From an uncultured Christensenellaceae bacterium (GTDB lineage: Bacteria; Bacillota; Clostridia; Christensenellales; Borkfalkiaceae), in the NCBI GenBank assembly GCA_910587005.1, contig CAJULB010000003.1:103725-167724 (forward strand): a stretch of DNA of 64,000 nt. Reading direction: 5' to 3'. Position numbers and translations under genes: made by a program. Shown in pieces: positions 13,319 to 29,751 of the stretch (the first letter of the stretch is position 1; every line of letters starts with the position of its first letter). Below the pieces are notes generated by a model. It was not told where the DNA came from. It did not search any database and was given only the letters and a program-made list of their open reading frames with translations.

Positions 13319-13984
13319 TTAAACAAGCAGAATTTCGCGCGCTGTATCGTATACGGACAGCTTGTTGTAATCGGGCGCAAGACAAACGCTGTCGCCTTCA
13401 GCAATGTTTTCCGCGGAAACATTCACGGTGACGCCGCCGACTTTGCAAACGGCAAACTTTTCCGTTCCGTAGTCAAGCACCTTTTCAACAACCGCGTTAA
13501 TACCGCTTTCCGCAATTTTAACGTCGTAAGGGGTAAAGTGAAATTGCATTTCGTTTTCAAACAGCTTTTTCATTTCCCCGCCCGAAAGCAGTTTAATACC
13601 GAATTCGTCGGGAAGCTCCGCAGTGTATTCATTGACGGAAATATCTATAACAAAGCCCTTGTCTTTTTTGACTTTTCCGTTTTCGTCCGTGCGTTCTTCA
13701 ACAACCTTGCGCTTAATAAGCTTGCCTTTAAGCGAGTTGTCAAGCGAAAGCGCGGGTTGCAGGCGCTCGCCGTTTTCGTCTGTAAATGTAGCCCGCTTCA
13801 AATCGGCAGTCATATAAACCGTTTTGCCCTTGGTAAAAGTTTTTTCGTCCGACGCAATTGCGTAAACGGTGCAGCCGCCCGCTTCAAGCTTCAAAAGACG
13901 CTTGTTGTTAACGTGTTCTTCGCCGACGTATACGGCGGGAATAGTGCCTTTTTTGTTTGTTGAAGAAACGTCAACCGCATACTG
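13319..13984 (-). pseudogene. Probable 3' remnant of a MalK/MsmK-type ABC ATPase (C-terminal regulatory/TOBE-like part only)
   Basis: The track ORF (13319..13894) starts at TTG. The frame stays open to 13984 with no ATG, no RBS and no nucleotide-binding domain. The C-terminal segment 'KVLDYGTEKFAVCKVGGVTVNVSAENIAEGDSVCLAPDYNKLSVYD' parallels the C-terminus of the intact ATPase at 44807..46585 ('ELLGGEYNVHFEFCGRNMIGKLAAKHKLSAGDKIAVRFSADDLYVFD'). It could alternatively be a stand-alone small protein. Confidence 0.35.
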
Positions 13985-13996
13985 TTACTTAAAAAC

Positions 13997-14025
13997 TTGT
14001 GTTTTGCATAAATTAATGTTAAAAT
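13997..14025 (+). promoter_or_regulatory. Candidate promoter of the antitoxin-like gene
   Basis: TTGTGT (13997-14002), 17-nt spacer ending TGT, TAAAAT (14020-14025). This is an extended -10 geometry. Confidence 0.45.
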
Positions 14026-14049
14026 CAAATAAAAAAAAGTGCTTTTAGT

Positions 14050-14274
14050 ATGCTTATAGATACCAACAAAATCGTTTCCATGACGGAGGCGAATCAAAAC
14101 TTTTCCGTCGTTGCAAAGCAGGCGGAAGAAAACGGCTGCGTGGTTATTTTCAAGAACAATAACCCCAAATATATTCTGCTGGATATTTCCGCCTGCAGAT
14201 TAGAACTGCCCAAGTCGGACGAGCGCATTGAAAAAGCGGCAAAGCGCAAAATTTCTCAGGCGAAGTGGCTTTAA
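14050..14274 (+). CDS. Phd/YefM-family type II antitoxin-like protein (orphan)
   Basis: N-terminal 'VSMTEANQNFSVVAKQAEENGCVVIFKNNNPKYILLDI' fits the Phd/YefM fold pattern. No toxin ORF follows it. Confidence 0.55.
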   Translation: MLIDTNKIVSMTEANQNFSVVAKQAEENGCVVIFKNNNPKYILLDISACRLELPKSDERIEKAAKRKISQAKWL

Positions 14275-14323
14275 ATATGCGCCGGGCACGCATAATTTTA
14301 CAAAGCTTTTTAAAAATTGAACA

Positions 14324-14351
14324 TTGACTTTTTGTGTTTTTGCAGTATAAT
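14324..14351 (+). promoter_or_regulatory. Candidate sigma-A promoter
   Basis: TTGACT (14324-14329), 16-nt spacer, TATAAT (14346-14351), upstream of the kinase-like gene. Confidence 0.5.
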
Positions 14352-14399
14352 AACAGTGTAAGCAAGCGCGTTCAAACGGCGCGAAAACGGGGGCGAAAA

Positions 14400-14996
14400 A
14401 TGAAGAAAATTATAACCATAAGCAGACAGTTCGGCAGCGGCGGCAGGGCGATAGGCAAAGCCGTTGCGGAAAAACTCGGTATTCCGTGCTACGACAAAGA
14501 AATAATAGAACGCGTTGCCGAGAGCAGCGGACTTTCCCGCGATTATATCGAAGCCACGGGCGAATATTCAACTCACCGCACATGGCTTGGCAGAGCGTTA
14601 AGCACAACCCATGCCGCGGGAACGCTTAACAATGAGGATTTAATTTGGGTTGAACAGAGAAAGCTGATACTTAATTTGGCGGAAAAGGGCGCGTGCGTTA
14701 TAGTCGGGCGCTGTGCGGACTATATTTTGAAGAACCGCAGCGACGTGCTTTCCGTGTTTATCCACGCGGACGACAAATCGCGTGCCGAGCGCATAGTAAG
14801 ACTGTACGGCGAACGCGCCGAAAAGCCCGAAAAGCGTTTGAAGGATAAGGACAAACGCAGAAGCGCGTATTATAAATATTACACCGAAACCGAGTGGGGC
14901 GTTGCCTCGAACTATCACATTTCGCTTGACAGCGGCGCGCTCGGCATTGAAAAATGCGTTGAAATTATAGCTTGCGCATACGGCGACAGCGAGTAA
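14400..14996 (+). CDS. Cytidylate kinase-like family protein (AAA/P-loop)
   Basis: 'MKKIITISRQFGSGGRAIGKAVAEKLGIPCYDKEII' is the typical N-terminus of this family. Start trimmed from 14334 to the ATG at 14400, which is preceded by GGGGG. Confidence 0.75.
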   Translation: MKKIITISRQFGSGGRAIGKAVAEKLGIPCYDKEIIERVAESSGLSRDYIEATGEYSTHRTWLGRALSTTHAAGTLNNEDLIWVEQRKLILNLAEKGACVIVGRCADYILKNRSDVLSVFIHADDKSRAERIVRLYGERAEKPEKRLKDKDKRRSAYYKYYTETEWGVASNYHISLDSGALGIEKCVEIIACAYGDSE

Positions 14997-15360: not shown

Positions 15361-16494
15361 ATGATAGACCAGAAGTTCGATGAAGTATTTACATACGAAG
15401 CGCTGTATCAGGCGCATATGCGGGGAAGGCTTGCCAAGCGCGATAAAAAGCCACTTGTGCGGTTCGAGAATGCAATGCTCGGCAATCTGTACAACGTGTA
15501 CATAAAACTGCAAAACGGCACCTTCAAGCTTCGCGGTTACAATCATTTTACCGTGTTCGAGCCTAAGCGGCGCGAAATTCAGACTTTGCACTATTCCGAC
15601 AGGGTCGTCCAGCACGTTCTGTGCGACGACGTGCTTGCGCCGTACTTCACAAAGCGCACCGTTATTGATAACGCGGTCTGTCAGAAGGGCAAGGGCAGTC
15701 ACTTCGCCCTCCGCAGGTTCGAGAATATGCTTCACGGCTACATACGCACGCACGGCGCCGACGGCTATATCTTAAAATGCGACATTTTAAAATATTTTCC
15801 GACCATTCCGCACGAAAGGCTGAAAAAAATTTTTTGTGCGGAAATCCGCGACGAGCGCATAAAACAGCTTCTGAATATGATAATCGACAGCTACCATACA
15901 GATATTGTCTATCTGGAACGCTACGGCGTTAAACCGCTCGCCGACGACTCCGGCAAAACCGGCAGGGGCATACCGATAGGCAACCAGACGAGCCAGGTTT
16001 TCGGACTGTTTTATCTGAACGAGGTTGACCGCTTCGTCAAGGAAAAACTGCGCGTAAAAATTTATTCGCGGTATATGGACGACTTTGTGCTTGTTCACGA
16101 AAGTAAAGAATTTTTGCAGAGCGCTTTAAAACAGCTGACCGGGCTTGTGCACAATCTCGGGCTGGAATTTAATTCCAAAACGCAGATTTTCCCGCTTAAA
16201 AACGGGGTAACATACCTCGGTTTCCGCTATCACGTCACGCCGAGCGGAAAAGTTGTAAAAACCGTAAAAAAGAAAACGAAAAGGCGTTTGCGCTGGCGGG
16301 CAAAGCTCTTAAAAAAAGCCGCGATAGAGGGCTTAATCACTCCCGAGCGCGTTCAGCAGTCGCTTGCGGCTTTCCACGGACATCTGAAACATTCAAAGGG
16401 ATACAGACTTGAAAAAGAGATTTTTGCAAAGCTCAGCGCCTACGCGGTGACTGAAAACGTTAAAAACGGCGGGCTTATCAAAAAACGACGCTGA
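15361..16494 (+). CDS. DGR-type reverse transcriptase
   Basis: RT domains with 'GIPIGNQTSQVFGLFYL' (the DGR-typical [IV]GxxxSQ motif) and the catalytic 'YMDDFVL'. 377 aa, with no maturase or endonuclease domain. Confidence 0.9.
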   Translation: MIDQKFDEVFTYEALYQAHMRGRLAKRDKKPLVRFENAMLGNLYNVYIKLQNGTFKLRGYNHFTVFEPKRREIQTLHYSDRVVQHVLCDDVLAPYFTKRTVIDNAVCQKGKGSHFALRRFENMLHGYIRTHGADGYILKCDILKYFPTIPHERLKKIFCAEIRDERIKQLLNMIIDSYHTDIVYLERYGVKPLADDSGKTGRGIPIGNQTSQVFGLFYLNEVDRFVKEKLRVKIYSRYMDDFVLVHESKEFLQSALKQLTGLVHNLGLEFNSKTQIFPLKNGVTYLGFRYHVTPSGKVVKTVKKKTKRRLRWRAKLLKKAAIEGLITPERVQQSLAAFHGHLKHSKGYRLEKEIFAKLSAYAVTENVKNGGLIKKRR

Positions 16495-16608: not shown

Positions 16609-17103
16609 ATGCAGGAAGAAGAACAGCTTTCACTGCAAATGCTGGAAAAAGAAATCCAGCAAGAGCTTAACATGCCCGAAGCGGTCGGACTGACCGACCC
16701 GTCCGCGGCAACGCGCAAAGCGTACCGCATAAACGATTTCGATAACCCGCGCGATAAAGAAATGGCGGTGTTCACCCACGCGAAAAAACTTAGCGAATAC
16801 ATTTTTGTAATCACTGAAAAATCCCCGAAAAAATACCGATGGAGCATAATAAGCCGATTGCAGAACGCCTCGGTAGAGCTTGTTGAAAACCTCTACCGCG
16901 CAAATTTCGAGCGTGACGAAGCCGTCCGCGTAAGCTTTCAGAAAGCGGCGGCGGTGTGCATAAAGCTGATTGATTTTTATGCAGAAACCGCGCGCAAAAA
17001 GCAAGCGATAACCGTCAGACAGACGGGCGTGCTTGCAAAACACATAGCCGAAACCGAAAAACTTTTAAACGGCTGGGTGCGCAGCACCAAACGCAAAATG
17101 TAA
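16609..17103 (+). CDS. avd: Avd-like accessory variability determinant (four-helix-bundle protein) with an acidic N-terminal extension of about 50 aa
   Basis: Helical core 'MAVFTHAKKLSEYIFVITEKSPKKYRWSI...' and basic tail 'LLNGWVRSTKRKM' resemble the Bordetella phage Avd / TIGR02436-type proteins. AAGGAG RBS 6 nt upstream of the ATG. Confidence 0.8.
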   Translation: MQEEEQLSLQMLEKEIQQELNMPEAVGLTDPSAATRKAYRINDFDNPRDKEMAVFTHAKKLSEYIFVITEKSPKKYRWSIISRLQNASVELVENLYRANFERDEAVRVSFQKAAAVCIKLIDFYAETARKKQAITVRQTGVLAKHIAETEKLLNGWVRSTKRKM

Positions 17104-17221
17104 ATTTCATCAAACAAAGCTCGGCGCGGCTCAACTGTAAATAAAGCAACTGCAAAACAAGCAAAACAGCAAATTTCACAGTAAAAAAACCGTACCGTAA
17201 CTTTCAGGGCGGAAGCTTAAT

Positions 17222-17343
17222 ATCTTCCTGGCTGCGCTCCGGCAACAATAACAATGCTAACAATGCCAATGCACTGTCAGCCTCAGGTAACAATACCTGG
17301 ACCACTGTTTCGTCCGTCGCTGCTGTCCGCCCCGCGCTTCACT
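17222..17343 (+). repeat. DGR template repeat TR1 (cognate of the VR in this window)
   Basis: 122 bp matching 20496..20617. There are 10 mismatches, all at TR adenines. In the VR frame it reads SWLRSG-NNNNANNANALSASGNNTWT-TVSSVAAVRPALH, rich in AAC/AAT codons. It is not part of any ORF. Confidence 0.92.
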
Positions 17344-17479
17344 CGCTTGCCAAAAAACGCTTGTCAAACACAACTTAATCAAACAAAGCTCGGCGCGGTC
17401 TGACTGTAAATAAAGCAAAACTGCAAATTTCACAGTGAAAAAAACCGCACCGTAACTTTCAGGGCGGAAGTCTGCTTAT

Positions 17480-17601
17480 ACTTCCTGGCTGCGCTCCGGC
17501 AACAATAACAATGCGAACAATGCCAATGCTCTGTCAGCCTCGGGCAATAACAACGGTTCTACTGTTTCGTCCGTCGCTGCTGTCCGCCCCGCGCTTCAAC
17601 T
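17480..17601 (+). repeat. DGR template repeat TR2 (no cognate VR in this window)
   Basis: Same 5' (CTTCCTGGCTGCGCTCCGGC) and 3' (ACTGTTTCGTCCGTCGCTGCTGTCCGCCCCGCGCTTCA) arms as TR1 and the VR. The 20-codon core reads NNNNANNANALSASGNNNGS. It differs from the VR at non-A positions (e.g. GCG vs GCT, GGTTCT vs TGGACC). Confidence 0.8.
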
Positions 17602-17776
17602 CGCTTGCCAAAAAACGATTGTGAAAAGCAATTGTCTGAAAACAGATTGCCCAAACATTAAACGACAAAGCTCGGCAAGGCTTCGGTAAAACTTTTGCTA
17701 ACACAGTTATGACTTACAAGAAATAACTACCCCAACTACCGAAGCCGCGCCGTAACTTTCAGGGCGGAAGCTTAAT

Positions 17777-17898
17777 ATCTTCCTGGCTGCGCTCCGGCAA
17801 CACAAACAACGCGAGCAATGCAAACTTTCTGACAGCCTCGGGCAACAATAACAATACGACTGTTTCGTCCGTCGCTGCTGTCCGCCCCGCGCTTCACT
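17777..17898 (+). repeat. DGR template repeat TR3 (no cognate VR in this window)
   Basis: 122 bp with the same arms. The 20-codon core reads NTNNASNANFLTASGNNNNT. It differs from the VR at several non-A positions. Confidence 0.8.
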
Positions 17899-18176
17899 CG
17901 CTTGCATACAAAAGACAAGGCAAGTTTTCCGGTATTCTGCACGTCTAAGGACTGCCGAACAGAAAAGATTTGAGAATGAAGGGGGCTTCCGTCCTGCCTG
18001 CGCTTAAAAAGCAACGCTTTAAAAGCAAAGGCGAAACCTGCTCAACCTTGACCCAACGGCTTCGGCTGAAACAAACCGTCGCATTTGGTTCATTAGCATG
18101 CTTGCATGCGGTTGAGCATTTTTTTATGCAATTTTTTTGCCGAGATGTTCGGCTGTACTGTTTTTATAGGTGAACG

Positions 18177-18207: not shown

Positions 18208-18230
18208 CTATCTTAATGGGGGGCAGGGGG

Positions 18231-18357
18231 TAAGCCACCCCCCTTAGTCCCCCCGCCGAGGGCAGGGGGTAGGTATTGGACAATCTCCGCCGAGGGCAGG
18301 GGGTAATAATGCGGTAAAAATCCCCCGCCTGGGCGGGGGAATAAAAGGGGGTGGGAT
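18231..18357. repeat. G/C-rich composite repeat, left copy (flanks the DUF559 gene)
   Basis: Modules: TAAGCCACCCCCCTTAGTCCCC, then CCGCCGAGGGCAGGGGGTA (x2), then the TCCCCCGCCTGGGCGGGGG palindrome, then AATAAAAGGGGGTGGGAT. A direct repeat of 18769..18896. Confidence 0.85.
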
Positions 18358-18384: not shown

Positions 18385-18729
18385 TTAAATGTTTAAATGG
18401 CTGTAAATATCGGCGCAGACAGATTTAAATTCTGAATTTACTTGTCGGTTAGAGTACCTCAAAACGGTATAACCCAAAGAATTAAGAAAATTATCCCTTT
18501 CAACGTCTTTTTCCGCGTGTCCGTCCCAATAATGTTGAGAACCGTCAAGTTCGATAATCAGTTTTTGTTTCGGACAGCAAAAGTCCACAATGTAATTTTC
18601 TATAACTTTCTGCCGCCAAAACCTTACAGGCAGTTTATTCAGGAATTGAAACCAAAGTTTTTTTTCTTCTTTGGTTTGATTACTACGCAGTACGCGTGAG
18701 TTTTTAAGCATATTTGAGTTTAGCTTCAT
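18385..18729 (-). CDS. DUF559 endonuclease-domain protein (Vsr-like fold)
   Basis: 'LRSNQTKEEKKLWFQFLN...YIVDFCCPKQKLIIELDGSQH...D..RDNFLNSLGYTVLRYSN' is the typical DUF559 pattern. Start trimmed to the ATG at 18729, because the track ORF extends into the G-rich repeat. Confidence 0.75.
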   Translation of the reverse strand: MKLNSNMLKNSRVLRSNQTKEEKKLWFQFLNKLPVRFWRQKVIENYIVDFCCPKQKLIIELDGSQHYWDGHAEKDVERDNFLNSLGYTVLRYSNRQVNSEFKSVCADIYSHLNI

Positions 18730-18768
18730 AGCAAAAGTATAACATTTATTTGTTTTAAATGCAAGTGT

Positions 18769-18896
18769 TAAGCCACCCCCCTTAGTCCCCCCGCCGAGGG
18801 CAGGGGGTAATAATGCGGTAAAAATCCCCCGCCTGGGCGGGAACAACACTACAACAAAATCCCCCGCCTGGGCGGGGGAATAAAAGGGGGTGGGAT
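18769..18896. repeat. G/C-rich composite repeat, right copy
   Basis: Same modules as 18231..18357, but here the CCCCCGCCTGGGCGGG palindrome module is duplicated instead of the CCGCCGAGGGCAGGGGGTA module. Confidence 0.85.
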
Positions 18897-18953
18897 TAGT
18901 GCAATTTTTCTGTTAAAAAGTAACAAAAAGAAATCGCGTAAAATTAAAAAAAA

Positions 18954-18980
18954 GTTCGCCTATTAATATGATAGGCGAAC
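18954..18980. repeat. Left 27-bp inverted repeat (self-palindromic arms), followed by a T7 run
   Basis: GTTCGCCTAT-TAATATG-ATAGGCGAAC. It is the exact reverse complement of 19132..19158, preceded by an A-run and followed by TTTTTTT. Confidence 0.9.
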
Positions 18981-19090
18981 TTTTTTTGTCGAACTTTGTC
19001 GAACAAAATTCACAAAACTACAAAAAAGGGTTAAAAATTGACAAATTATCATAAAATAGTATGGAAATATGAGAAATTTTTTAAAATTTG

Positions 19091-19119
19091 TTGACATAAT
19101 TTACAAATAGTGATAGTAT
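19091..19119 (+). promoter_or_regulatory. Candidate sigma-A promoter of the giant DGR-target gene, located between the two inverted repeats
   Basis: TTGACA (19091-19096), 17-nt spacer, TAGTAT (19114-19119), pointing toward the ATG at 19213. Confidence 0.5.
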
Positions 19120-19131
19120 ACGGGTACAAAA

Positions 19132-19158
19132 GTTCGCCTATCATATTAATAGGCGAAC
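19132..19158. repeat. Right 27-bp inverted repeat
   Basis: GTTCGCCTAT-CATATTA-ATAGGCGAAC. The arms match the left copy and the 7-nt centre is reverse-complemented. Confidence 0.9.
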
Positions 19159-19212
19159 ATTTGGTGCATAAAAAATTTAAAAATTGTTATAAAAAAAGGT
19201 AGGGTTTTTGGT

Positions 19213-22200
19213 ATGACAATACACAAGAAGGGGCAGGCGAAAAATAGCCGTTTTTACGCTATTTTTCACCGAAAAGCGACAAAAATCGGCACTTTATTTG
19301 CAACATTCGCGTTGAGCATTGCGTGCTTGACGGGCACGCTTTTGCCGTCGAAAACATCAAACGCAATGCAGGGCGGTGTTACTTATTCACAAATAGGTGA
19401 AATCTGGAATGACACGCGCAACCGCTTCAACTCGGCAGAGCTTACAAAGCTGTTCAATCAGCTTGCCGGCAGTGACTACACGGCGGCGACAAAACCGAAA
19501 GACGCGCTTGAAAACATCAAAACGCGTTTAAACCTTGACAGCAGTAAAAACGACTCTTACGGCACTAAGGCAATCAACGAAACGGCGGCAAACCATTATA
19601 ACCACCAGCTCACGTCAAACCAAATCCGTTTAAAAAACGGCGGTAAAGACATAGTTGTGGAGTTCGGCGGGCTTGAATGGACGGTAACATATCTGTCCTA
19701 CACAAAAACGGGCGAACCGATTGCCACGCTTTGGCTTGCCAACCCGCTTGGCACCAGCCGTTGGTCGGACTACTGGTACACTAAGTACACTACCACCAAC
19801 ATGACAAAGCAGTCCAACCTGTACGGTCAAAGCTATATCCGTTCGGAAACGTTAAACGCAGGCTCTCGCTATACCACGGTTGCGGGCGCTTCGGCAAGCA
19901 GTGTAAAGACGGATATAACCTCGGACGCAAGCGTTCAGTGGGTGGAAAACCAAAAGAGTTACGACAACCCTTTTGCAAAATTCACTATTAATAATAAGGA
20001 AACGGCTTACGACAACTCCGGCAACAACCCGCAGAAGTTCAAAGGCAGTTTAACCGAATTCCTTGCAACCCCGCGCGAGGTAAGCTGGCAGGAGGACCAA
20101 AGCTGGTCGGTATTCGGCAACCTCGACTATTCGTTGGGTAACGACAGCTGGGACGACCCTTACGTTATCGCCAACGGCGTAAGCGGAAACGGCGCGGTCG
20201 CTTCAACGTTCAACTACTACAATGCAGGCAACGGCGACTTCCGCCGTGCGTACGGCAGAACCACCGACAGCGACGGTGACGGATACGGCGACGGTCAGGT
20301 TTACAACGGCGCAGGCAAGTACAAAATTCAGTACACTGACTGGGCGGACGACTATGTATGGCTTCCTTCCTTAACAGAAACCGGCTACCAGAATAACGCA
20401 GGCACTTCAAAGTCCACGGTAGGCGGTGTTTGGTACCCTTCACAGGCACAGCGTAAATGCTTCGGCGGTACTAACGACGGTTTCAGCAGTTCCGACTCTT
20501 CCTGGCTGCGCTCCGGCGACTCTCTCAATGCTAACAATGCCCATGCACTGTCAGCCTCAGGTTACCCTACCTGGACCACTGTTTCGTCCGTCGCTGCTGT
20601 CCGCCCCGCGCTTCACTTAAATCTCGAATCTGCCGCTTCAGCGGCAAGGGGCATTGACGTACCCGAAGAGATTGAAACCGAAACCGCAAAAACGTACAGC
20701 GGTACGGCAATTGCAAGCCTGCAATATATCGACCTGACGAAAAGCGAAATCAGCAAGGTTGAATTAACAAAAACAGATAACAAAGGCAATCCAACTACGT
20801 CAACATTGACCGCGGGCGAATACTCGGTTACGGACGGCGTGTTTTATGCTACCAACGCGGGCAAATACAAGGTTACGTTCACAATAAAAAATCAAGCAAA
20901 CAAATGGGACGGTAGTACGGTTGACCCCGACACAGGGGTACCGATACACCCGACCGACCCCGACCAGCCCGTAATATACTGGGAAATTCTGGATTTGCCG
21001 GACGGTTACACACCGCAAGGCTCGTCCGACCTGCGATTGCAGGACCAGACGATAGAGTTTGAAATAGCCAAAGCCGAAACCGTTCTGTCCGACGTAAGGA
21101 GGACCGAAACCGCTCAGCTTTATACGGGCGGAGCGTTGCCTCCGCTGACCTGCACCACGTCGGTAAACGGCGCGGTAACTTTGGACAGCGACCAGACGCT
21201 TGACCACGAGGCTACGCTGTACAACTGGACGTTCCTGCCCTCCGGCGCGGACCAGTACAACTATAAACAGAAAACGGGCACCATAACGCTGAACGTTAAA
21301 AAACCGCTTTTGAAAACGCTGACCGCAACCTTTGACGCGGACGCATACAAAAGCGCGCTTGAAGCGGGCACGGCTTTACCGATATATTCCTCAACCCCGA
21401 TTGCAAATATCAAAGCTATAATAAGCAGTTTTGTAACCATTTCGGGTAAAAAAGAGGACGGAAACGCTTACACGTTGCCTATATATTATAATATTGATTA
21501 TAACGCAACCGACAAGCTGAACGGCAAACTGCAATACGGCACAACAAGCGTTGTGGCAAGCTATCAGGACGCGGATATGCTTGCGGAAGGCGTTGAAGCC
21601 GTTAAGTGCGATATCGAGGGGATACCCGTTATCGCCGTTGAAATGACGGGCATTACGCTTAACACCACATACAAAAACGTTTACAACGCGTACGATACGT
21701 TCGATACGACCGATTTGGTGGTTACGGCAACCTTTAACGATAATTCCACAAAGGTTATATCCTCTGCCGATTATACGGTTGAGTATGTTGACAGCACGCG
21801 CAGTAAGCTTTGGGCAAGCGACGGTTACGTTACCGTTAAGTACGTTTACAACGCCGAAAACGGCAAAGAGAATACCGACAGCAAAACCGCGTCGGTTACG
21901 GTAAACAAAATTAACTTTACGGGACTTACGTTTGAAAACAGCACCGTGCCTTACGACGGTGAAAACCACGCTATAACCGTAGGCGGAACGTTCGACCCCG
22001 ACAAAATGACAGCGGTTTACGCATATGCGGGCGCAGTAGGCAGCGGCAGGGTTAACGTGGGCGATTATACCGTTTCGGTTTCGCTTACGTTCACCGATAA
22101 CGAGCTTATAACCAACTATCACCCCGTAACCCTTGCGGACGTTACCCTTAAAATTACCGCGGTTGACTACGACGACCTTACTTCGCTTACGTTCAACAAC

Positions 22201-25200
22201 GTTTCGGCGGAGTTTATAGGGCAGTCGCTTGCTTCGGCTATAACCGCTTCGGGTATGCCTGCGGGCGTTACCGCAACATACACGTTTGCCGACAGCGAGG
22301 GCAACCCCGTTTCCTCGGCGGACGTTATAAACGCGGGTTCTTATACCGTTACCGCTAAGTTTAAGGTTGATAGCAACCACAACGCCATCCCCGACAAAAC
22401 GGCGGTATTGACGGTTACTCCCAAAACCATATTAATAAACAATTTAAGCGGAATTAATTCCGAATACACCTACGCGGGCAGTGCGTGGAGCAACCCCGCG
22501 CCTATATTGAAGGTTACGCTCGGCACGGACGCAACCGCAACAAATCTTGTAGCCGATACCGACTACACCGTAACTTATACGGTTACTGCTGGTACCGCGG
22601 GCAAGGCGGGCGCAACCGTTCTTGTTACCGTTACGGGTAAGGGCAACTACAAGGGTACGGTTACAAAATCGTTCTCAATCAAAAAAGCTACGCTTAATCT
22701 TACCTGGAACGCGGGTTCGCCCCAGTATGACGGAAACCCCCACGGCGCAACGCTTGAAGTAACGGGCGGAGTGCAGGCGGGCGACGAAAGCATTACAACC
22801 TCGGCTTTGGGCGCGCTTATCAGCGTTACCTATACTAAGGACGGAGCTACGGTAAGCGGAGTGCCCTCGGCAATGGGTATTTATACGCCTGCGTTCACCA
22901 ACTTCCCGACGAGCGAGCCGTATTCCAACTACGACTACGTTATAACCAACGTAGGATATAAGTATGAAATAACCGCGGCGGTTATTTCGGGAATTACTTT
23001 CGACGATTTATCCGTTGAATTCAACGGCAAAAACCAGACCATAGAAATCACCGCGTCAAGCGCGCTCCCCGCGGACGTTACCCCCGTATATTACTACAAG
23101 GGCACGTCAAACCTGTTCACGGGCGCAACCAACGCGGGAACGTATGAAGTTACCGTTAAGTTTGTAAGTGCAAGCGGAAACTACGCCGCGCCCGCGGATA
23201 TGGACGCAGTGCTTACAATCACGGCAAAGACGATTGCGGATATAAACGTAAGCAATATCAACAGCGAGTACGTTTATAAGGGCGAAGCGTGGAAGCCTTT
23301 GCCCGCGGTTGCCGTTGCTTTGGGTACGGATACCACGGCTACAACCCTTGCAAAGGACAGAGATTACACCGTTGCATACAGCACGGAGGATTATTCGGCG
23401 GGCACGACGGTTACTGTCACCGTTGAGGGTATAGGCAATTACAGCGGTACCGTTACCGTTGCGTTTGAAATTAAAAAGGCGACTTTGGGCGTTGATTTTA
23501 TCGGCACAGATAAAACTTACGTCTACAACGGCGTTGCGCAGGGCGTTACGGCGGTGTTCACGGGCGTTGCCGAAAGCGATAAGGACACTGTTGTGCCTAC
23601 AATCGTTTACGAAAGTGCGGACGGAACAACTTACCCCGCAAACGCAAATCTGCCCAAAAACGCAGGCAGTTACGTTATTAAAGTAACGCTTGACGCAACC
23701 TTCGCAAACTACGAAAGCTTTGCTGAAATTTCAGAAACGTTCGATATCGAAAAGGCAACCCCTGTAGTTCACGTTGCTTTCGATACCTATAATCCCGATA
23801 CCGACCGCATTTTTGCAGGCGGCGACCTGCCCGCGCTTAAAGTGGTTTCGGCAGTGTTCGGAAGCGTAACCGTAACCGGTACGGTTGACTGGCAGTTAGT
23901 TGACGGCGTTAAACCGCTTTTAACCACAGCGCTTACCGATTACGTTTGGGAATTTGTGCCTGCGGGCGACGACGCGGTTAACTTCAATAACTATACGGGC
24001 AAAATTCAGCTTTACGGCGAAGTGCCCGGTATTGCGGGTATTACCGTAGAGTGGAGGGCGGACGTACCTGCTCCCACGATTTACACGTCTACCTCGCTTG
24101 ACGATTTAAGAAAATATATTATCGTGCGCGCTACGCTGGACAACGGCAAACCCGCGGACGGTGAGATTACCGATTACACCCTTAAAGGCAACTGGGGCGC
24201 TGGCGTTAAGCCTGTTGACAACGTTACCGCAGACTATAACTTAACCGTAATTTCGGCAAACGGCAAATCCGCCGAGCTGGAAAACGTTAAGTATTACAAG
24301 GTTGAGCTTATCGGGCTTGACGTTGTGGCTTCGGACGCAGACGCAGGTATTAAATTAACCTACGCCGCGCTTACGAAGTTCGATAAGTCGAGCATTTCGG
24401 TCATAGCTTTGTATAACGACGGTAGCCGTGTTACTGACATTACCGATTACGAAATCAAATATCCCGTGGAGGGAGAGGACGTTCTTTGGGCGGGCAACAC
24501 TTACGTTACCGTATCCTATAAGGACGGCACCGTTGCAACCGCTAAGGAGTTTATAATTAACGGTTTAACGGTTAATTCGGTTAATTACGACCTTACGGAC
24601 GTTAAGTTTGCGGATACCTCCGTACCCTATGACGGTAACGAACATTCCGTTGTTGTTACGGGCTTGCCAGCAAGCGGTATGAAGCTTGAATACACTTACA
24701 ACGGTACGGCTCTGCCCGACGGCGTTAACGGTATGGTTGACGCGGGCAAGTACACGGTAAGCGTTAAGATTACCTTCACGGACAATAAATATATCGTTAA
24801 CTACAACGCGATTGTTTTAAGCGATATTACCCTCACGGTCGAAAAAATCGACTACGACGGAGTTGGCGATATTACGTTTGACGACGTTGCCGTTGATTAT
24901 AACGGCAGTGCGCGCGCAGACGAAATTGTTGCGGGCAATGTTCCCGCGGAAGTGGTTGCGCTGGGCGTAACTTACAAGTACGAGAAAGTCGGCGCAGACG
25001 GAACTTTGACCGAGTGCTCCGCGGAAGACGTAATTAACGCGGGCGAGTACAAGGTTACCGTTTCGTTCACGGTAGATAAAAACCATAAGGACATTCCCGC
25101 GGTTACCAAAACGCTTACTATTAACAAAATCGACCCCACTATTAACCCTACGGTTATCAGGGCGATTACGGGACAGCTTCTTATCGGCGCACAGCTTATT

Positions 25201-28200
25201 TCCGCCGACGGAGATACCCCCGGTAAGTACGAATGGATTAACCCCGACCATACTTTGGCAAACACCAACAACGAACAGTACAGATTTACCCCGACCGATA
25301 CGGTAAACTATAACGTTGTAACGAAAAATATCGTGTTTGCAGCGGAAACCAAGGTTTTACAGACTATCCGCGTAATATTTACGCAGGGCGATACAAAGCT
25401 TTACACCTCGTACACGATTGAAGACGTTAAAAAGCTTATCGACGAAGGTAAAATAAGCATACAGGTTATAGGCGTATATACAGACGGTTATAACGCTACC
25501 GAGGAAAATATTTCGGCAGGCTACGAGCTGTCCTTGCCCGACGGTGCAACGCATCTTACCGAGGGCGAGTGCCATATCAGCGTCAAGTACCAGCATGTTA
25601 CTAATTCCGACCGCTATCTTACGGTTACAAAAACCGAACTTGAAAGCATTACCCCCGTATTCGACCAGAAGGGCGTGCCTGTATACAGCACTCCCGACGA
25701 TATAGAAACGCTTAAAGCGCTTATCGCGGCGGGCACAGTTTCCCTCACGGTTACGGGTACCAACAACGACGGTAAAACCGCTACCGAGCCTTTCACCTAC
25801 ACAATTTCGGGCGACTGGTCAGGCATGACGGCGGACGGTAAGTTTGCTGTTACCGTTACGGTTGACGGAACAAGCATTTCAAATACCTTCGAAGTTGAAA
25901 TTACGCTTGCGGCAATAGCTTCAATTAAAGCGGAATTTGACCAGAAGGACGCGAAAATCTTCACTTCAACCGATTTGGACGGATTTAAACAGCTGCTTGC
26001 AAACGGCGAAGTTTCGCTTACCGTAAAGGCTTATTACAACAACGGCAAAAACGTTGAAATCAACCTTGCAACGGATACTTCCGACGGTTACACGCTTGCG
26101 CTTTCGACTGCTAATTTCGAAGTAGGCGGACTTGTAAACGTAAGCTATACGGTAAACGGCACGTCGTTCCCCGCATCGTTCGCAGTTGACGTTACGGAAG
26201 TGGAGGTAGTAAGCGTAAGCGCAACCGTTAAAGCCGGCTTCACCGTTTACACCGATACTACACTTGCAAACCTTAAAGACAATATACTTGCAACTGCTTA
26301 CCGCAACGACGGAACAAGCTTCGACGTACCCGCGGCAGACTTCTCGATTTCCCTGCCTGACGGAGAAACCAAGCTTACGGCAGGCGCGCAGAAAGTCGTA
26401 CTCGTCACATATAACGGTTCCGACAAATCTGCCGACTGCGCGGACTTCGGTCTTATTACCGGCGTAACCAAGCACGCAACCCAGATATACTATAACGGCA
26501 AGACCGAATTCACTTATACGGGCAGCGAGCAGGTTATCAACAGCGGAGCAACTACAACCAACACTCAGAGCCCGACGATTAAATATACAATCGGCGGAGC
26601 GGACGCTAAATTTACGGACGTACCCGCAAGCGGCGAGCTTGTTCTTAAAATCGAAGCGGCTGAAACCGACGATTACTTTGCGGCTGAAATTACTCTTACG
26701 ATAACCGTAAGCAAAGCCGACATAGATATGTCTGCGGTTGACTTCGACGACGTTGAATACAAGTATGACGGAACCGATAAGAGCATAACCGTTGATACAA
26801 GCAAGCTTCCTGCCGGCGTTACCGTAAGCGGTTATGAATATCTCGACACTTCGGACGGTACAACGCTTTCAACTTCAAGCGTATCTGCGGCGGGCGTGTA
26901 CAAAGTAACGGTTAAATTCACCGTTACCGATACCGACAACTACAATCTTGTAGCCAACAAAACCGCAACGCTTACAATCAAAAAAGCGGACTACGATATG
27001 ACCGGCGTTACCTTTAACGGCGATACGGTTACATATGACGGCAGCACGCATACCCTTTCGGTTGACGCAAGCAGTCTTCCCTCGGGCGTAACCGTTAAGG
27101 AATACGTTTACACCAACAAGGCGACGGGTGTTAAAGTAACCGATACCGGCGTTGCAAACGCAGGCGAATATACCGTTTCGGTAAGCTTCAACGTAGCTGA
27201 CGCAGTAAACAATAACGCAGTAGCCGATATGACCGCAACGCTTACTATAAACAAGGCGCAGACGGTTATAGATACTTCCGCAATTGTAACCGATTACACC
27301 TACGACGGACTTTCGCACACTGTAAGCGGCGCAACGCTTACCGCAGGCGAAACGGGCGCGGTTATACTGTATTCTTCAAACAGCACGTTTACCGACGTTC
27401 CCTCGGGCGGCAAGCTCACCGTTACCGTGTACGTTAACGACAGCACCAACTATATCGGCGCTTCGGCAACGGTTGAAATAACGGTTAGAAAAGCTTCTCT
27501 TACGATTACAGCGAAGGATAAGACGATATTCTACGGCGACGCACCCGCAAACGACGGAATTAACGAGCCTGTCGGCTTTGTTAACGGCGAAACCGTTGCA
27601 AACCTTAAAGGCAACGCAACATATTCTTACGATTATGCTAAGGGCGGCAACGTTGGCGATTACGTTATTACGGTAAGCGGATTTACTTCTGCAAACTATG
27701 ATATAACCTACGTTACAGGCACCCTTCACGTACTGCAAAAGACTGTTGCGGTTGAATGGACTTCACAGACCTATACGTTCGACGGAAACGGCCACGCTCC
27801 CACGGCTTCGTTTACGGGCATCGGCGGCGACAAAATCGCTATGACCGTAACGGTGGAAGAAAAGGGCGGTTCTGCCGTAACAGGCTTGCCCGTCAACGCT
27901 TCAACCTATGTTGCAACGGCGGCTTCGACCAACGCAAACTATAAGTTTACCGGCGAAACCAAGGAATTTACCATTAATCCCGCGGATATAAGAGTTACGG
28001 GCACGGGCGACCAGTTCTACCTCAGCGGCGGCAGTAAGGACATTACTATTGACGCGGCGGAAAACGGCAAATACGTGTACGTAATACTTCAGGGCAATGT
28101 TACGGGCGCAACGTTCGAGTACAGCCAGGCGCACAACACCTCGTCTGCATATCCCTCTCCCGAGGGGGAACACTCGTTCACAACCTCCAAACCCGTTATA

Positions 28201-29751
28201 ACGGCGGCGGGCAGATACGTTGTAAATTACAGAATAACTGCTCCCAACCATAACGTTTATCTCGGACAGTGGACGGTTGAAGTTACTGACGATACCGAAA
28301 AATCAATAACCATAACCTTCAAAAAACCCTATACCGTTGAGTTCGGCAAGGTGCCCGAAAGCAAGGATGAGCTTGCAAAGCTTGCCGAAGAGCTTTACGA
28401 CGGCGGATATATAACCGTTGACGGACTTGACAGAGAAGAGTTCCTTAAAGTTATGGAACTGCGTTTGAAAGTAGATAATTCCACCGACGTAACGACGGGA
28501 ACAGACGTAGGCAGATACACTCCTTATTTCGAAATCGGCGATGTGTTCGAACCCGTTTACGGCGGTTACGTAATCTTCTACAAGACCGAAAACACGGCGG
28601 AAAACTCCAACATCGGCAAGTTTGAAATTAAGCAGAAAGAGCTCAGCATTACATGGGACAGCATAGGCTTCGTAGCAGACGGTACGTTGCATCTTCCCAC
28701 GGCAACCATAGGCGGATTTAATGACGGTACAACCGCAACGCTTGAACTTGACAGCGCGGCGGGCAAAACGTTCAGAATCGAAGCCGACGGTAAAACAATC
28801 AATGTAACAATCGGCGTACACGGCGACTTAATCAGCGCCGGCGGACATACGCTTGTAGTCAGTGTAGACGACGATAACTATACAATCGACGTTCCTATGA
28901 CCACCGTTTCCATAACGGCGCCCATTAAGCTTGAAGTTAAATGGGAAAATACAAGCTTTGTATACGACGGCGAATCGCATCTTCCCAAAGCTTTGATAAG
29001 CGGTTTTGCTGGCGGTAAAACGTTTGAATTTGCTTTGCAGACAGCGGAAGGCGGCAGCTATTCGTTTGAAAACAACGGCACAACCATTACTTTCACAGTA
29101 ACGGTTGCGGGTTCAGGCAACGTATTTACGGACGTAGGCGTTTATAGAGTTACCGTTTCGTCAAACAGCGCTAACTATGTAATAAGCAATCCCGACACCC
29201 AGATATCGATAACGGCTCCCAGAAAACTTGTTGTAACGTGGAACCAGACGGTATTTGATGAGGACGGAACACAGCACTTCCCCAAAGCTTTGATAAGCGG
29301 ATTTAACGAAAGCGACCCCGTAGCTATCGAACTTAAAGCGGTAAGCGGCGGCGTGTTCACGGTAGAGGTAGACGGTAAAAGCGTAACCTTTACTGTAAAC
29401 GTTGCAGGTATAGGCAATATTCTTAAAGACGCGGGCAACTATAACGTTTCGCTCACGGTTAACAGCAAAGATTACGTTATCGATAACGCTGACGTTACCA
29501 TGACGGTAAGGGCGCTTGTCGGTGGCGAAGTCGAAGGCAAGCTTTCCAAGCCCTGGCTTATAGGTCTGATTATTGCGCTCGGCGTGCTGTTCATAATGAT
29601 TATAATTGCTTATATCGTTGCGGCTAAGCGCAAACCCAAGCTTGTCGGCGCTATCGACGAAGGCGGTTTCAGCGAACCGTATATGCAGTCTTTGGACTAT
29701 ATGGAAGCTGCACCGTCGGACGACGATGACGACGAAGAAGAGGATGAGTAA
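19213..29751 (+). CDS. Giant (3512 aa) cell-surface protein and DGR target
   Basis: Domain order: signal/anchor-like N-terminus, a variable lectin-like head, Ig-like (Big_3-type) and MBG/'YDG' repeats, then a C-terminal TM anchor and acidic tail. N-terminal hydrophobic segment 'IGTLFATFALSIACLTGTLL'. Head module ends 'SSWLRSG...VRPALHLNL'. Dozens of ~80-100-aa repeats carry 'V.YDG..H', 'AG.Y.VTV', 'NY......ATLTI.KA'. One classic MBG unit: 'FYGDAPA...GDYVITVSGFTSANYDITYVTGTLHV'. C-terminus 'PWLIGLIIALGVLFIMIIIAYIVAAKRKPK...DDDDDEEEDE'. No LPXTG motif seen. Confidence 0.9.
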   Translation: MTIHKKGQAKNSRFYAIFHRKATKIGTLFATFALSIACLTGTLLPSKTSNAMQGGVTYSQIGEIWNDTRNRFNSAELTKLFNQLAGSDYTAATKPKDALENIKTRLNLDSSKNDSYGTKAINETAANHYNHQLTSNQIRLKNGGKDIVVEFGGLEWTVTYLSYTKTGEPIATLWLANPLGTSRWSDYWYTKYTTTNMTKQSNLYGQSYIRSETLNAGSRYTTVAGASASSVKTDITSDASVQWVENQKSYDNPFAKFTINNKETAYDNSGNNPQKFKGSLTEFLATPREVSWQEDQSWSVFGNLDYSLGNDSWDDPYVIANGVSGNGAVASTFNYYNAGNGDFRRAYGRTTDSDGDGYGDGQVYNGAGKYKIQYTDWADDYVWLPSLTETGYQNNAGTSKSTVGGVWYPSQAQRKCFGGTNDGFSSSDSSWLRSGDSLNANNAHALSASGYPTWTTVSSVAAVRPALHLNLESAASAARGIDVPEEIETETAKTYSGTAIASLQYIDLTKSEISKVELTKTDNKGNPTTSTLTAGEYSVTDGVFYATNAGKYKVTFTIKNQANKWDGSTVDPDTGVPIHPTDPDQPVIYWEILDLPDGYTPQGSSDLRLQDQTIEFEIAKAETVLSDVRRTETAQLYTGGALPPLTCTTSVNGAVTLDSDQTLDHEATLYNWTFLPSGADQYNYKQKTGTITLNVKKPLLKTLTATFDADAYKSALEAGTALPIYSSTPIANIKAIISSFVTISGKKEDGNAYTLPIYYNIDYNATDKLNGKLQYGTTSVVASYQDADMLAEGVEAVKCDIEGIPVIAVEMTGITLNTTYKNVYNAYDTFDTTDLVVTATFNDNSTKVISSADYTVEYVDSTRSKLWASDGYVTVKYVYNAENGKENTDSKTASVTVNKINFTGLTFENSTVPYDGENHAITVGGTFDPDKMTAVYAYAGAVGSGRVNVGDYTVSVSLTFTDNELITNYHPVTLADVTLKITAVDYDDLTSLTFNNVSAEFIGQSLASAITASGMPAGVTATYTFADSEGNPVSSADVINAGSYTVTAKFKVDSNHNAIPDKTAVLTVTPKTILINNLSGINSEYTYAGSAWSNPAPILKVTLGTDATATNLVADTDYTVTYTVTAGTAGKAGATVLVTVTGKGNYKGTVTKSFSIKKATLNLTWNAGSPQYDGNPHGATLEVTGGVQAGDESITTSALGALISVTYTKDGATVSGVPSAMGIYTPAFTNFPTSEPYSNYDYVITNVGYKYEITAAVISGITFDDLSVEFNGKNQTIEITASSALPADVTPVYYYKGTSNLFTGATNAGTYEVTVKFVSASGNYAAPADMDAVLTITAKTIADINVSNINSEYVYKGEAWKPLPAVAVALGTDTTATTLAKDRDYTVAYSTEDYSAGTTVTVTVEGIGNYSGTVTVAFEIKKATLGVDFIGTDKTYVYNGVAQGVTAVFTGVAESDKDTVVPTIVYESADGTTYPANANLPKNAGSYVIKVTLDATFANYESFAEISETFDIEKATPVVHVAFDTYNPDTDRIFAGGDLPALKVVSAVFGSVTVTGTVDWQLVDGVKPLLTTALTDYVWEFVPAGDDAVNFNNYTGKIQLYGEVPGIAGITVEWRADVPAPTIYTSTSLDDLRKYIIVRATLDNGKPADGEITDYTLKGNWGAGVKPVDNVTADYNLTVISANGKSAELENVKYYKVELIGLDVVASDADAGIKLTYAALTKFDKSSISVIALYNDGSRVTDITDYEIKYPVEGEDVLWAGNTYVTVSYKDGTVATAKEFIINGLTVNSVNYDLTDVKFADTSVPYDGNEHSVVVTGLPASGMKLEYTYNGTALPDGVNGMVDAGKYTVSVKITFTDNKYIVNYNAIVLSDITLTVEKIDYDGVGDITFDDVAVDYNGSARADEIVAGNVPAEVVALGVTYKYEKVGADGTLTECSAEDVINAGEYKVTVSFTVDKNHKDIPAVTKTLTINKIDPTINPTVIRAITGQLLIGAQLISADGDTPGKYEWINPDHTLANTNNEQYRFTPTDTVNYNVVTKNIVFAAETKVLQTIRVIFTQGDTKLYTSYTIEDVKKLIDEGKISIQVIGVYTDGYNATEENISAGYELSLPDGATHLTEGECHISVKYQHVTNSDRYLTVTKTELESITPVFDQKGVPVYSTPDDIETLKALIAAGTVSLTVTGTNNDGKTATEPFTYTISGDWSGMTADGKFAVTVTVDGTSISNTFEVEITLAAIASIKAEFDQKDAKIFTSTDLDGFKQLLANGEVSLTVKAYYNNGKNVEINLATDTSDGYTLALSTANFEVGGLVNVSYTVNGTSFPASFAVDVTEVEVVSVSATVKAGFTVYTDTTLANLKDNILATAYRNDGTSFDVPAADFSISLPDGETKLTAGAQKVVLVTYNGSDKSADCADFGLITGVTKHATQIYYNGKTEFTYTGSEQVINSGATTTNTQSPTIKYTIGGADAKFTDVPASGELVLKIEAAETDDYFAAEITLTITVSKADIDMSAVDFDDVEYKYDGTDKSITVDTSKLPAGVTVSGYEYLDTSDGTTLSTSSVSAAGVYKVTVKFTVTDTDNYNLVANKTATLTIKKADYDMTGVTFNGDTVTYDGSTHTLSVDASSLPSGVTVKEYVYTNKATGVKVTDTGVANAGEYTVSVSFNVADAVNNNAVADMTATLTINKAQTVIDTSAIVTDYTYDGLSHTVSGATLTAGETGAVILYSSNSTFTDVPSGGKLTVTVYVNDSTNYIGASATVEITVRKASLTITAKDKTIFYGDAPANDGINEPVGFVNGETVANLKGNATYSYDYAKGGNVGDYVITVSGFTSANYDITYVTGTLHVLQKTVAVEWTSQTYTFDGNGHAPTASFTGIGGDKIAMTVTVEEKGGSAVTGLPVNASTYVATAASTNANYKFTGETKEFTINPADIRVTGTGDQFYLSGGSKDITIDAAENGKYVYVILQGNVTGATFEYSQAHNTSSAYPSPEGEHSFTTSKPVITAAGRYVVNYRITAPNHNVYLGQWTVEVTDDTEKSITITFKKPYTVEFGKVPESKDELAKLAEELYDGGYITVDGLDREEFLKVMELRLKVDNSTDVTTGTDVGRYTPYFEIGDVFEPVYGGYVIFYKTENTAENSNIGKFEIKQKELSITWDSIGFVADGTLHLPTATIGGFNDGTTATLELDSAAGKTFRIEADGKTINVTIGVHGDLISAGGHTLVVSVDDDNYTIDVPMTTVSITAPIKLEVKWENTSFVYDGESHLPKALISGFAGGKTFEFALQTAEGGSYSFENNGTTITFTVTVAGSGNVFTDVGVYRVTVSSNSANYVISNPDTQISITAPRKLVVTWNQTVFDEDGTQHFPKALISGFNESDPVAIELKAVSGGVFTVEVDGKSVTFTVNVAGIGNILKDAGNYNVSLTVNSKDYVIDNADVTMTVRALVGGEVEGKLSKPWLIGLIIALGVLFIMIIIAYIVAAKRKPKLVGAIDEGGFSEPYMQSLDYMEAAPSDDDDDEEEDE
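20496..20617 (+). repeat. DGR variable repeat (VR), codons ~428-469 of the giant ORF
   Basis: Matches TR1 except at positions where TR1 has A. It encodes SWLRSG-DSLNANNAHALSASGYPTWT-TVSSVAAVRPALH. Confidence 0.92.
20631..20646 (+). other. Short GC hairpin 14 nt downstream of the VR (candidate DGR target-recognition hairpin/cruciform)
   Basis: TGCCGC-TTCA-GCGGCA: a 6-bp stem with a 4-nt loop, inside the coding sequence immediately after TR/VR homology ends. Confidence 0.5.

Follow-up and report, generated by a model that had tools for sequence, protein, structure and literature searches.

The window analysed here is a 64,000-nucleotide stretch of contig CAJULB010000003.1 (positions 103,725 to 167,724; assembly GCA_910587005.1) from an uncultured Christensenellaceae bacterium. 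It carries a diversity-generating retroelement (DGR) with three template repeats (TRs) in tandem behind a single reverse transcriptase (RT) and its accessory protein (Avd), together with one variable repeat (VR) inside a giant target gene. In the usual view of DGRs, one invariant template fixes the scaffold and variation arises only at the template adenines. The locus is a DGR by its RT motifs, its Avd, the adenine-only mismatches between TR and VR, the GC-rich arm and the VR hairpin, and the features needed for the argument are as follows (all on the plus strand).

15361..16494, plus strand, DGR reverse transcriptase (377 aa; Pfam RVT_1, 1.4e-14; IGNQTSQ and YMDD)
16609..17103, plus strand, Avd accessory protein (164 aa; Pfam bAvd, 44.4 bits, cut-off 40)
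17104..17221, plus strand, leader of cassette 1: outer stem AAAGCUCGGC...CCGUAACUUU around a hairpin of variable sequence, then box CAGGGCGGAAGC at 17205-17216
17222..17343, plus strand, TR1, core NNNNANNANALSASGNNTWT; 0 non-adenine and 9 adenine mismatches to the window VR
17344..17479, plus strand, TR1 trailer (CGCTTGCC...) and leader of cassette 2; box at 17450-17470
17480..17601, plus strand, TR2, core NNNNANNANALSASGNNNGS; one additional A (TTCAACT)
17602..17776, plus strand, TR2 trailer and leader of cassette 3 with a longer hairpin, GGCUUCGGUA...UACCGAAGCC; box at 17750-17770
17777..17898, plus strand, TR3, core NTNNASNANFLTASGNNNNT; donor of the VR in loci L002/L017, L015 and L016
17899..18125, plus strand, structured 3' RNA domain (about 230 nt) ending in a U-tract, found by conservation and RNAalifold
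19213..29751, plus strand, target gene for a 3512-aa protein with a DUF6273-like domain that contains the VR, then MBG-type repeats
20496..20617, plus strand, VR, aa 429-468, SWLRSG-DSLNANNAHALSASGYPTWT-TVSSVAAVRPALH, in frame in the 3512-aa open reading frame (ORF)

The gene order is thus RT-Avd, TR array and then 3' domain. Both IPIGNQTSQ and the catalytic YMDD are present in the RT translation, and motif 4 ([I/L/V]GxxxSQ) together with YxDD is diagnostic for RTs of the DGR clade. More than 600 homologues of the RT occur in metagenome-assembled genomes (MAGs) of Clostridia. The Avd also matched NCBIfam DivGenRetAVD with E=1.9e-12, which is under the curated cut-off of that model. Galactose and glycan-utilisation genes adjoin the DGR, which indicates that the element is chromosomal.

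An original prediction, made from the letters of the sequence, had placed here a DGR with three TRs behind one RT/Avd, arms shared with the VR and an identical 21-nt box before each TR, and all of these elements were found in their places. Each TR is 122 nt long and carries the identical 21-nt leader box and a CTCGCTTGC trailer. The TRs are spaced nearly as had been thought, with start-to-start distances that we measured as 257 and 298 nt instead of 258 and 297 bp; the GC-rich 3' arm is shared as well, and the sequence given for it has 38 nt, not the 41 ascribed to it. The core translations of TR1 to TR3 had been read correctly. The 20-nt 5' arm CTTCCTGGCTGCGCTCCGGC has exactly four copies in 64 kb (17224, 17481, 17779 and, in the VR, 20498), where shuffles expect 0, and the 17-nt end of the 3' arm, GTCCGCCCCGCGCTTCA, also has four (0.21 expected). 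The box CCGTAACTTTCAGGGCGGAAG has three copies (17195, 17450 and 17750, the first being 17195-17215), with 0 expected. Both arms of the VR are common to all three TRs, the window has one VR only, and the 3' arms of the TRs are identical to each other for at least 38 nt. The true repeat unit exceeds the TR: a hairpin leader of about 120 nt and the box precede the TR, and a short trailer follows it (repeat families D1, D8, D11 and D19). This leader architecture, with differing hairpin sequences, was predicted in most of 23 folded leaders from 5 species, and the last cassettes of three of the loci compared (L024, L027 and L088) have a different, longer leader hairpin. A scan of the window found no promoter-like sites within the array. 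The order TR1-TR2-TR3 recurs in independent MAGs and metagenome contigs, so the array is not an assembly artefact.

To compare alleles, loci were taken as public contigs with the exact RT and Avd proteins, all copies of TR and VR were extracted, and mismatches at template adenines were scored separately from those at other bases (non-A). The VR alleles were gathered through DNA loci since a protein search with the VR domain gave just 7 proteins. A DUF559 search contributed one further locus (L081), and a scan of Joint Genome Institute (JGI) metagenomes with the VR 3' flank returned a single locus (L077) and no population sample. The main set contained 16 VR alleles from 3 species; the VRs of MGBC136074, MGBC140398 and the P0050 lineage were analysed separately.

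The window VR differs from TR1 by 9 changes in the 112-nt unit, all of them at TR adenines and none at non-A positions, and mismatches TR2 at 10 and TR3 at 11 non-A positions, in agreement with the earlier proposal that the window allele derives from TR1. Pooled over the 16 alleles, 226 of 376 adenine positions were changed, compared with 23 of 1299 non-A positions (odds ratio 84, p=2e-147), and approximately 60% of the TR adenines were substituted in transferred tracts. Twelve of the 16 alleles match one unit of their own array with 0-2 non-A mismatches, the other units giving 7-16; overall, non-donor cassettes gave 7-17 mismatches. Of the remaining four, L013, L081 and L090 match a unit variant absent from their own assembled array, and L077 is a mosaic. 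Many conspecific arrays have a fourth cassette, TR0, upstream of TR1, and the VRs were assigned to donors as follows.

TR1-type: window and L012, 0 non-A mismatches to TR1
TR1-type: L014, 1 non-A mismatch
TR1-type: L001, 1 non-A mismatch, which is GCG at core codon 5, the state of TR2/TR3
TR2-type: L010, 0 non-A and 16 adenine mismatches to TR2
TR3-type: L016, 0 non-A mismatches
TR3-type: L015, 1 non-A mismatch
TR3-type: L002/L017 (VR cut by the contig end), 0 non-A mismatches
TR0-type: L081 (partial VR), 0 non-A mismatches, the TR0-specific CTCC-ACG included

Two private variants mark individual donors. A T>A change in the 3' arm of TR3 of L016 (ACTGTATCG) recurs in the VR of L016 alongside a TR3-type core, and this arm single-nucleotide polymorphism (SNP) amounts to a natural marker-transfer experiment. 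In MGBC136074, a six-TR genome, the VR bears CTTGTTTCT, an arm variant private to the fourth TR. Across RT-Avd (1743 bp) and 1278 bp of target sequence upstream of the VR, the window, L001 and L010 show 100% identity, and downstream of the VR, for up to 3 kb, the identity to the window is 100% for L001 and 99.94% for L010. These three loci hold three different VRs, two TR1-type and one TR2-type. The TRs themselves are near-invariant, with about 7 polymorphisms among 13 conspecific loci. From these flank-identical contigs with differing VR types, template switching appears to be recent. The VR of L077, on a 1.18-Mb JGI contig, corresponds to unit 2 at positions 1-33 and to the terminal unit 3 at positions 34-112. 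The polarity of this mosaic fits cDNA integration from the GC-rich 3' end, resolved by 5' homology, or template switching; integration of DGR cDNA begins at the GC-rich 3' side and depends on 5' homology (PMC3240598).

What the data show is the anatomy, adenine-specific transfer from every cassette type into a single locus, switching among strains with identical flanks, one mosaic with two donors and an architecture that crosses species. We consider it very likely that one RT-Avd is served by tandem alternative cassettes, any of which is able to rewrite the same single VR of a giant surface protein. Of the two explanations offered by the original prediction, this is the one in which the TRs compete for the same VR, and it is supported directly by the conspecific VR locus, which holds TR0-, TR1-, TR2- and TR3-templated alleles. 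Variable array size, a single conserved 3' domain and the complementarity of each box to that domain go beyond what had been predicted.

The number of TR units per array was 3 in the window, 2-4 in conspecifics (TR0 included) and 3, 3, 4, 6 and 11 in related species. Related MAGs, from the mouse-gut MGBC catalogue, carry the labels Christensenella or Candidatus Borkfalkiaceae. Comparing TR copy number among related genomes, as had been suggested, gave arrays of 3-11 units and two lineages with a single TR. Donor switching and array size in the more distant lineages were as follows.

89% RT identity (L088-L091): 3 TRs; VR donors are units 3, 3, 2 and 1 in four samples
67% RT identity (L095-L097): 11 TR-like units over about 1.9 kb; donors are the 6th, 1st and 7th units in three samples, with 0, 0 and 1 non-A mismatches, respectively
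73% RT identity (L092, L093): 1 TR
62% RT identity (L098-L100): 1 TR

With single TRs in L092/L093 and L098-L100, arrays look like the derived state within this RT clade. Within the species, L018 has one unit fewer, with the TR1 core followed by the TR2 trailer, and in L081, L019 and L082 the TR0 leader is fused to the TR1 core. These cases indicate that arrays gain, lose and exchange cassettes, and some of them may be assembly collapses.

Two side observations concern individual arrays. L013 (ERZ14864009 NODE_614, 10600-14400) is a hybrid in which RT-Avd is 99.7% and the 5' region of the target only 94% identical to the window, and its TR2 trailer and TR3 resemble another species; it is either the product of inter-species recombination over the DGR/target region or a chimeric metagenome contig. 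The eleven-unit arrays (L095:8690-10570 and L096/L097:8690-10535; GCA_949027525.1, GCA_910579525.1) contain 3-4 adenine-poor units (10-16 A) with a distinct leader (AGAGCGGAAACTTTTATTTTTAC). These units are adenine-mutagenised copies of units of the same array (0-4 non-A and 9-13 adenine mismatches), they vary between samples, and in L095 they have the VR-like junction ...CCCGCGC|TTCA, not the TR-like ...CCCGCGA|TTCA. The pattern resembles retrohoming that targets non-coding slots within the array.

The structured 3' domain is present once per array, after the last TR only, and is conserved in 4 multi-TR species and 2 single-TR relatives. RNAalifold gave 60 pairs for it, 20 of them with compensatory changes. 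An Rfam scan of the entire window at the gathering threshold matched no family, which means that the domain is not a curated RNA. Its elements are given below.

helix P1: the TR end CUUCACUC with GAG-AA-UGAAG at 17973-17981
hairpin P2: GCUUGC with GCAAGU
anti-box: GGGGGCUUCCGUCCUG at 17981-17996
closing stem: 18039-18047 with 18110-18118, followed by U7 at 18119-18125

The anti-box had a single match per locus wherever the search pattern found it, and one per locus was used for all 9 loci compared. The leader box CAGGGCGGAAGC is complementary to the anti-box GGGGGCUUCCGUCCUG, and 20 of 20 cassettes pick that site, with duplex free energies (dG) of -19 to -30 kcal/mol and z of -2 to -5.6. The two strands covary: the pair is GGAAGC/GCUUCC in the window, GGAGGC/GCCUCC in L024 and, in the single-TR relatives, GAUAAC/GUUAUC in L092 and GUAAG/CUUGC in L098, and one G-U pair is invariant. 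Scored on the same sequences that defined it, the helix was 89.5% paired, compared with 38-58% when slid; 5 pairs were changed on both sides, and the covariation score was reached by 0 of 500 shuffles. Every TR ends in CUUCA(A)CUC, which provides the 5' strand of P1, and the trailer (G)CUUGC(C), which lies beyond the TR/VR homology, is the 5' strand of P2 and is kept in 20 of the 20 trailers listed; P2 covaries in L098. Single-sequence folds of the cassettes were no more stable than shuffles (z -0.3 and -0.8), so our structural claims rest on comparative data. The box/anti-box complementarity suggests that the cassettes could dock alternatively on the 3' domain.

In Bordetella, template-primed cDNA synthesis needs nearly all of the spacer (Sp), which base-pairs with the end of the TR where priming takes place, as well as 20 nt of sequence ahead of the TR (PMC6182149). 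By its position and its pairing with the TR end, the 3' domain would correspond to Sp. We propose that RT, Avd, array and 3' domain form one transcript, which would end at the U-tract 18119-18125, and that the single 3' domain would act as Bordetella Sp does in RT-Avd binding and priming. The leader box of one cassette would pair with the anti-box, as the covariation supports, and the TR end and trailer of that cassette (CUUCACUC..CUUGC) may occupy the P1 and P2 strands, as their conservation suggests. The TR of the docked cassette would then be looped out, and one TR per RNA molecule would be offered for priming; for internal TR ends, priming would be expected near GAGAAUGAAG, 17973-17981. 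Any cassette could be reverse-transcribed with adenine mutagenesis, and its cDNA would replace the same VR. Diversification would have two tiers: the choice of cassette would set the mutable codons and the fixed scaffold residues, and adenine mutagenesis would randomise inside the chosen scaffold. Mixed alleles would arise via partial 3'-anchored conversion or template switching.

The cassettes of the species differ in ways that give the first tier something to choose from. Each of its four TRs has 21-25 adenines in the core and allows about 6e11 to 1e13 protein variants. At core position 19, TR1 encodes Trp and TR2 encodes Gly, whereas TR0 and TR3 leave the residue fully variable, and core position 10 is Ala in TR1/TR2, Phe in TR3 and Y/F/S/C in TR0; the cassettes also differ at core positions 2, 6, 9, 12, 17, 18 and 20. 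A fuller picture, which we offer tentatively as possible and not far short of probable, is that this mouse-gut Christensenellales clade keeps an evolvable library of 2-11 cassettes, that mutually exclusive docking picks the template, that each retrohoming swaps and hypermutates the scaffold, and that mosaics and write-back extend the repertoire.

Besides the shared use of sequences in defining and scoring the box/anti-box helix, several points weigh against this account. DGR activity is inferred from alleles in assemblies. The VR of L013 fits, with 0 non-A mismatches, a TR2 variant of another lineage and not its own TR2; the VR of L090 matches the TR2 variant of L089; and the VR of L081 is TR0-type, yet TR0 is absent from its low-coverage contig. 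Such misfit alleles imply array turnover, inter-lineage recombination or assembly collapse. For the docking, duplexes of trailer and 3' domain (RNAduplex) did not outscore shuffles (z 0 to -2.7), and the partner chosen was often the terminator strand, so trailer docking is argued from conservation only. The box is also complementary, over 7 bp, to the 3' arm of each TR itself, and the boxes of L027, L045 and L096 mismatch the anti-box. Finally, a remote VR in the window's own genome is conceivable, since our scan for further copies of the arm bears on three related MAGs.

Among the alternatives, the one that survives best concerns the mechanism alone. In a copy-choice scheme only the terminal TR would be primed, and the RT would jump through the shared 3' arm to an internal TR. 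That the 3' domain exists after the last TR only and that the 3' arms are identical over at least 38 nt would suit such jumps, in the L077 mosaic the terminal unit supplies the 3' part and the unit before it the 5' part, and template switching by the DGR RT has been proposed for 5' integration (PMC3240598). However, the VR of MGBC136074 has the arm-proximal CTTGTTTCT of the fourth TR and the VR of L016 has the arm SNP of TR3, and such arm variants copied into the VR mean that any template jump is confined to the last ~30 nt. Moreover, the internal cassettes conserve a box complementary to the anti-box as well as the P1/P2 strands, which copy choice would not need. We regard copy choice as unlikely.

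It could also be supposed that the VR types are old allelic lineages, with one active TR per strain and the others as relics, and that the pattern reflects standing polymorphism and recombination between strains without ongoing switching. The VRs of L013 and L090, which fit TR variants of other lineages, would agree with this, and the contrast in L013 between the target 5' region (94% identity to the window) and the RT (99.7%) indicates that recombination moves the target region between lineages. But the flanks of the window, L001 and L010 have 0 differences over ~3 kb, yet their VRs are of TR1 and TR2 type, and the L077 mosaic requires two donors on one VR. All TR units also keep adenine-rich cores, boxes and trailers across strains and species, which argues for selection on every cassette. 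This makes the allelic-lineage explanation improbable.

The second explanation of the original prediction, in which TR2 and TR3 serve paralogous VRs elsewhere in the genome, is harder still to uphold. In this case each TR would serve its own VR in a remote target, and what looks like switching would be due to paralogues that assembly had collapsed or mis-joined. In its favour, the literature documents DGRs with remote targets and with several TR-VR pairs (PMC5758913, PMC6642488, PMC12386605), short-read contigs often break at the array and the VR, and the genomes on which the arm scan bears are related MAGs. A remote VR would show as a further copy of GCTGCTGTCCGCCCCGCGCTTCA. When 185,579 species, with one genome each, were scanned for an exact 23-mer of the shared 3' arm, the only matches apart from chance ones in Streptomyces were in three related MAG species from the mouse gut. 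These three MAGs have arrays of 3, 4 and 6 TRs, each with exactly one other copy, and this sole extra copy is in each case the VR of the orthologous giant protein, which speaks against remote paralogous VRs. In addition, the 10.5-kb target is crossed with unique flanks by independent contigs of 105 kb to 1.18 Mb, which would not be expected of dispersed near-identical paralogues, and all VR types share the same flanking sequence. On the sequences at hand, remote VRs do not appear to be needed to explain TR2 and TR3, and we hold this explanation to be highly improbable.

That TR2 and TR3 are dead duplicates, or that the array is an assembly expansion, is hardly credible: repeat assembly is fragile in general and the TR0-leader/TR1-core fusions of L081, L019 and L082 may be collapses, but VR alleles templated by TR2 and TR3 exist and the same array order is repeated across many independent assemblies and species.

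Two other ideas were considered and rejected. Activity of only the terminal TR after DNA rearrangement does not suit TR1-TR2-TR3 arrays that carry TR1- and TR2-type VRs, and an origin of the TRs as captured VR alleles does not suit TRs that have A exactly where VRs vary and are nearly invariant between strains.

Compared with canonical DGRs (BPP-1 with brt-avd-TR and the mtd VR, Legionella, Treponema, Bacteroides), the locus has the same RT motif, an Avd, a non-coding TR and adenine-only VR differences; its 3' arm is likewise GC-rich, and a hairpin follows the VR. The 3' structured region and upstream sequence that BPP-1 requires are conserved here, and where the TR end of BPP-1 pairs with the 3' region near the priming site, the corresponding site here is a presumed one (PMC6182149; PMC3240598). 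Canonical DGRs have one TR, whereas here three (2-11) tandem TRs serve one VR. The canonical VR is C-terminal, whereas this one occupies residues 429-468 of 3512 aa. In place of the canonical mismatches between the initiation of mutagenic homing (IMH) sequence and IMH*, TR equals VR here through the whole 3' arm, diverging only after CTTCACT. Published multi-TR DGRs also have more than one TR near one RT (PMC6642488, PMC12386605, PMC11661182). They are described as TRn-VRn pairs, or as overlapping calls that were removed by hand as redundancy (PMC6642488, PMC11661182, PMC12386605, PMC5758913), and unlike here they include no case of several TRs feeding one VR, of array-size variation or of donor switching. 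Our search of the open-access full-text literature likewise found no report in which one VR is fed by several TRs, the size of a TR array varies or the donor switches. The element is a DGR in kind, and its architecture and function are new and would surprise a DGR specialist.

The arrangement also recalls the cassette systems of Neisseria pilS/pilE, Borrelia vls and the chicken Ig pseudo-V genes, which likewise have silent cassettes beside one expression site, shared arms, and unidirectional, segmental transfer that yields mosaics. In pilS/pilE and vls, transfer is faithful DNA gene conversion, whereas the adenine-specific signature here means that it is RNA-mediated and mutagenic. The likeness to these gene-conversion systems is one of logic, not of membership. 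Vertebrate antibodies similarly combine a choice of template (V segments) with subsequent targeted hypermutation of ligand-contacting residues; their machinery is unrelated, and in the DGR both tiers would fall in one retrohoming event.

If tandem cassettes do rewrite one VR, the locus would be a prokaryotic counterpart to the choice of V segments combined with somatic hypermutation. Competing templates would lift the limit of one scaffold per DGR, with fixed Trp, Gly, Ala and Phe becoming variable or different, partial conversions would recombine templates, and estimates of DGR sequence space would change. The same reading would explain why some TR/VR pairs, dropped from surveys as degenerate, mismatch at non-adenine bases, and why such loci break assemblies. 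Many short-read contigs stop within the array or at the VR (L003-L009, L002, L081), and such breaks are expected if the VR is heterogeneous within samples. Gene callers translate through TR arrays; one such product, P0003, is a 193-aa "protein" of two TR units. Loci of this kind will be under-detected or mis-annotated in MAG catalogues. The array would also be a natural experiment on DGR RNA recognition, and with one 3' domain for many TRs and a covarying box and anti-box, template choice and priming become testable. For engineering with DGRec-type tools, one RT-Avd with a template array would diversify one target from several scaffolds.

The target protein begins with a hydrophobic, signal-peptide-like segment (judged by eye from the translation), and the VR codes SWLRSG-[20 variable codons]-TVSSVAAVRPALH at the end of the DUF6273-like domain near the N-terminus, with a GC-only stretch CCGCCCCGCGC at 20601-20611. 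The match of the VR domain to DUF6273 was sub-threshold (21.7 bits, cut-off 23.5), a sequence search of the PDB with this domain gave chance matches only, and an AlphaFold model from an 8-sequence alignment was unusable, with a predicted local distance difference test (pLDDT) score of 30.7. The WLRSG...VRPAL motif is kept in target homologues. Two further features lie around the VR and upstream of the target gene.

20631..20646, plus strand, hairpin TGCCGC-TTCA-GCGGCA, 14 nt downstream of the end of the TR/VR homology
18385..18729, minus strand, DUF559 (Vsr-like endonuclease) ORF between G/C-rich direct repeats at 18223-18340 and 18761-18880

The hairpin is retained with altered stems in L060, L058 and L095, and folds of two window TRs, TR1 and TR3, predicted none downstream of either. 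Efficient retrohoming in Bordetella depends on a hairpin that closely follows the VR (Guo et al. 2011, PMC3240598), and the hairpin at 20631-20646 is a candidate target-recognition hairpin or cruciform. The DUF559 block sits between the terminator of the DGR RNA and the target gene and lies outside the DGR. L012, L013, L016 and L017, all of them conspecific, lack it. It is thus a polymorphic insertion and may be a small mobile element.

The best sigma-70-like promoter site upstream of the target gene is at 19091-19119. It is flanked by two copies (18950-18984 and 19128-19162) of a palindrome of 27-35 nt (GTTCGCCTAT..ATAGGCGAAC), and similar inverted pairs lie ahead of the target genes in L088, L092, L095 and L098. 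These palindromes form a candidate operator pair through which expression of the variable protein could be regulated. Shortly before the DGR, a PhdYeFM-type antitoxin ORF (14050-14274) with no obvious toxin partner stands beside an unannotated minus-strand ORF (13319-13894, 191 aa), whose length in different strains is 191, 189, 164 or 134+38 aa.

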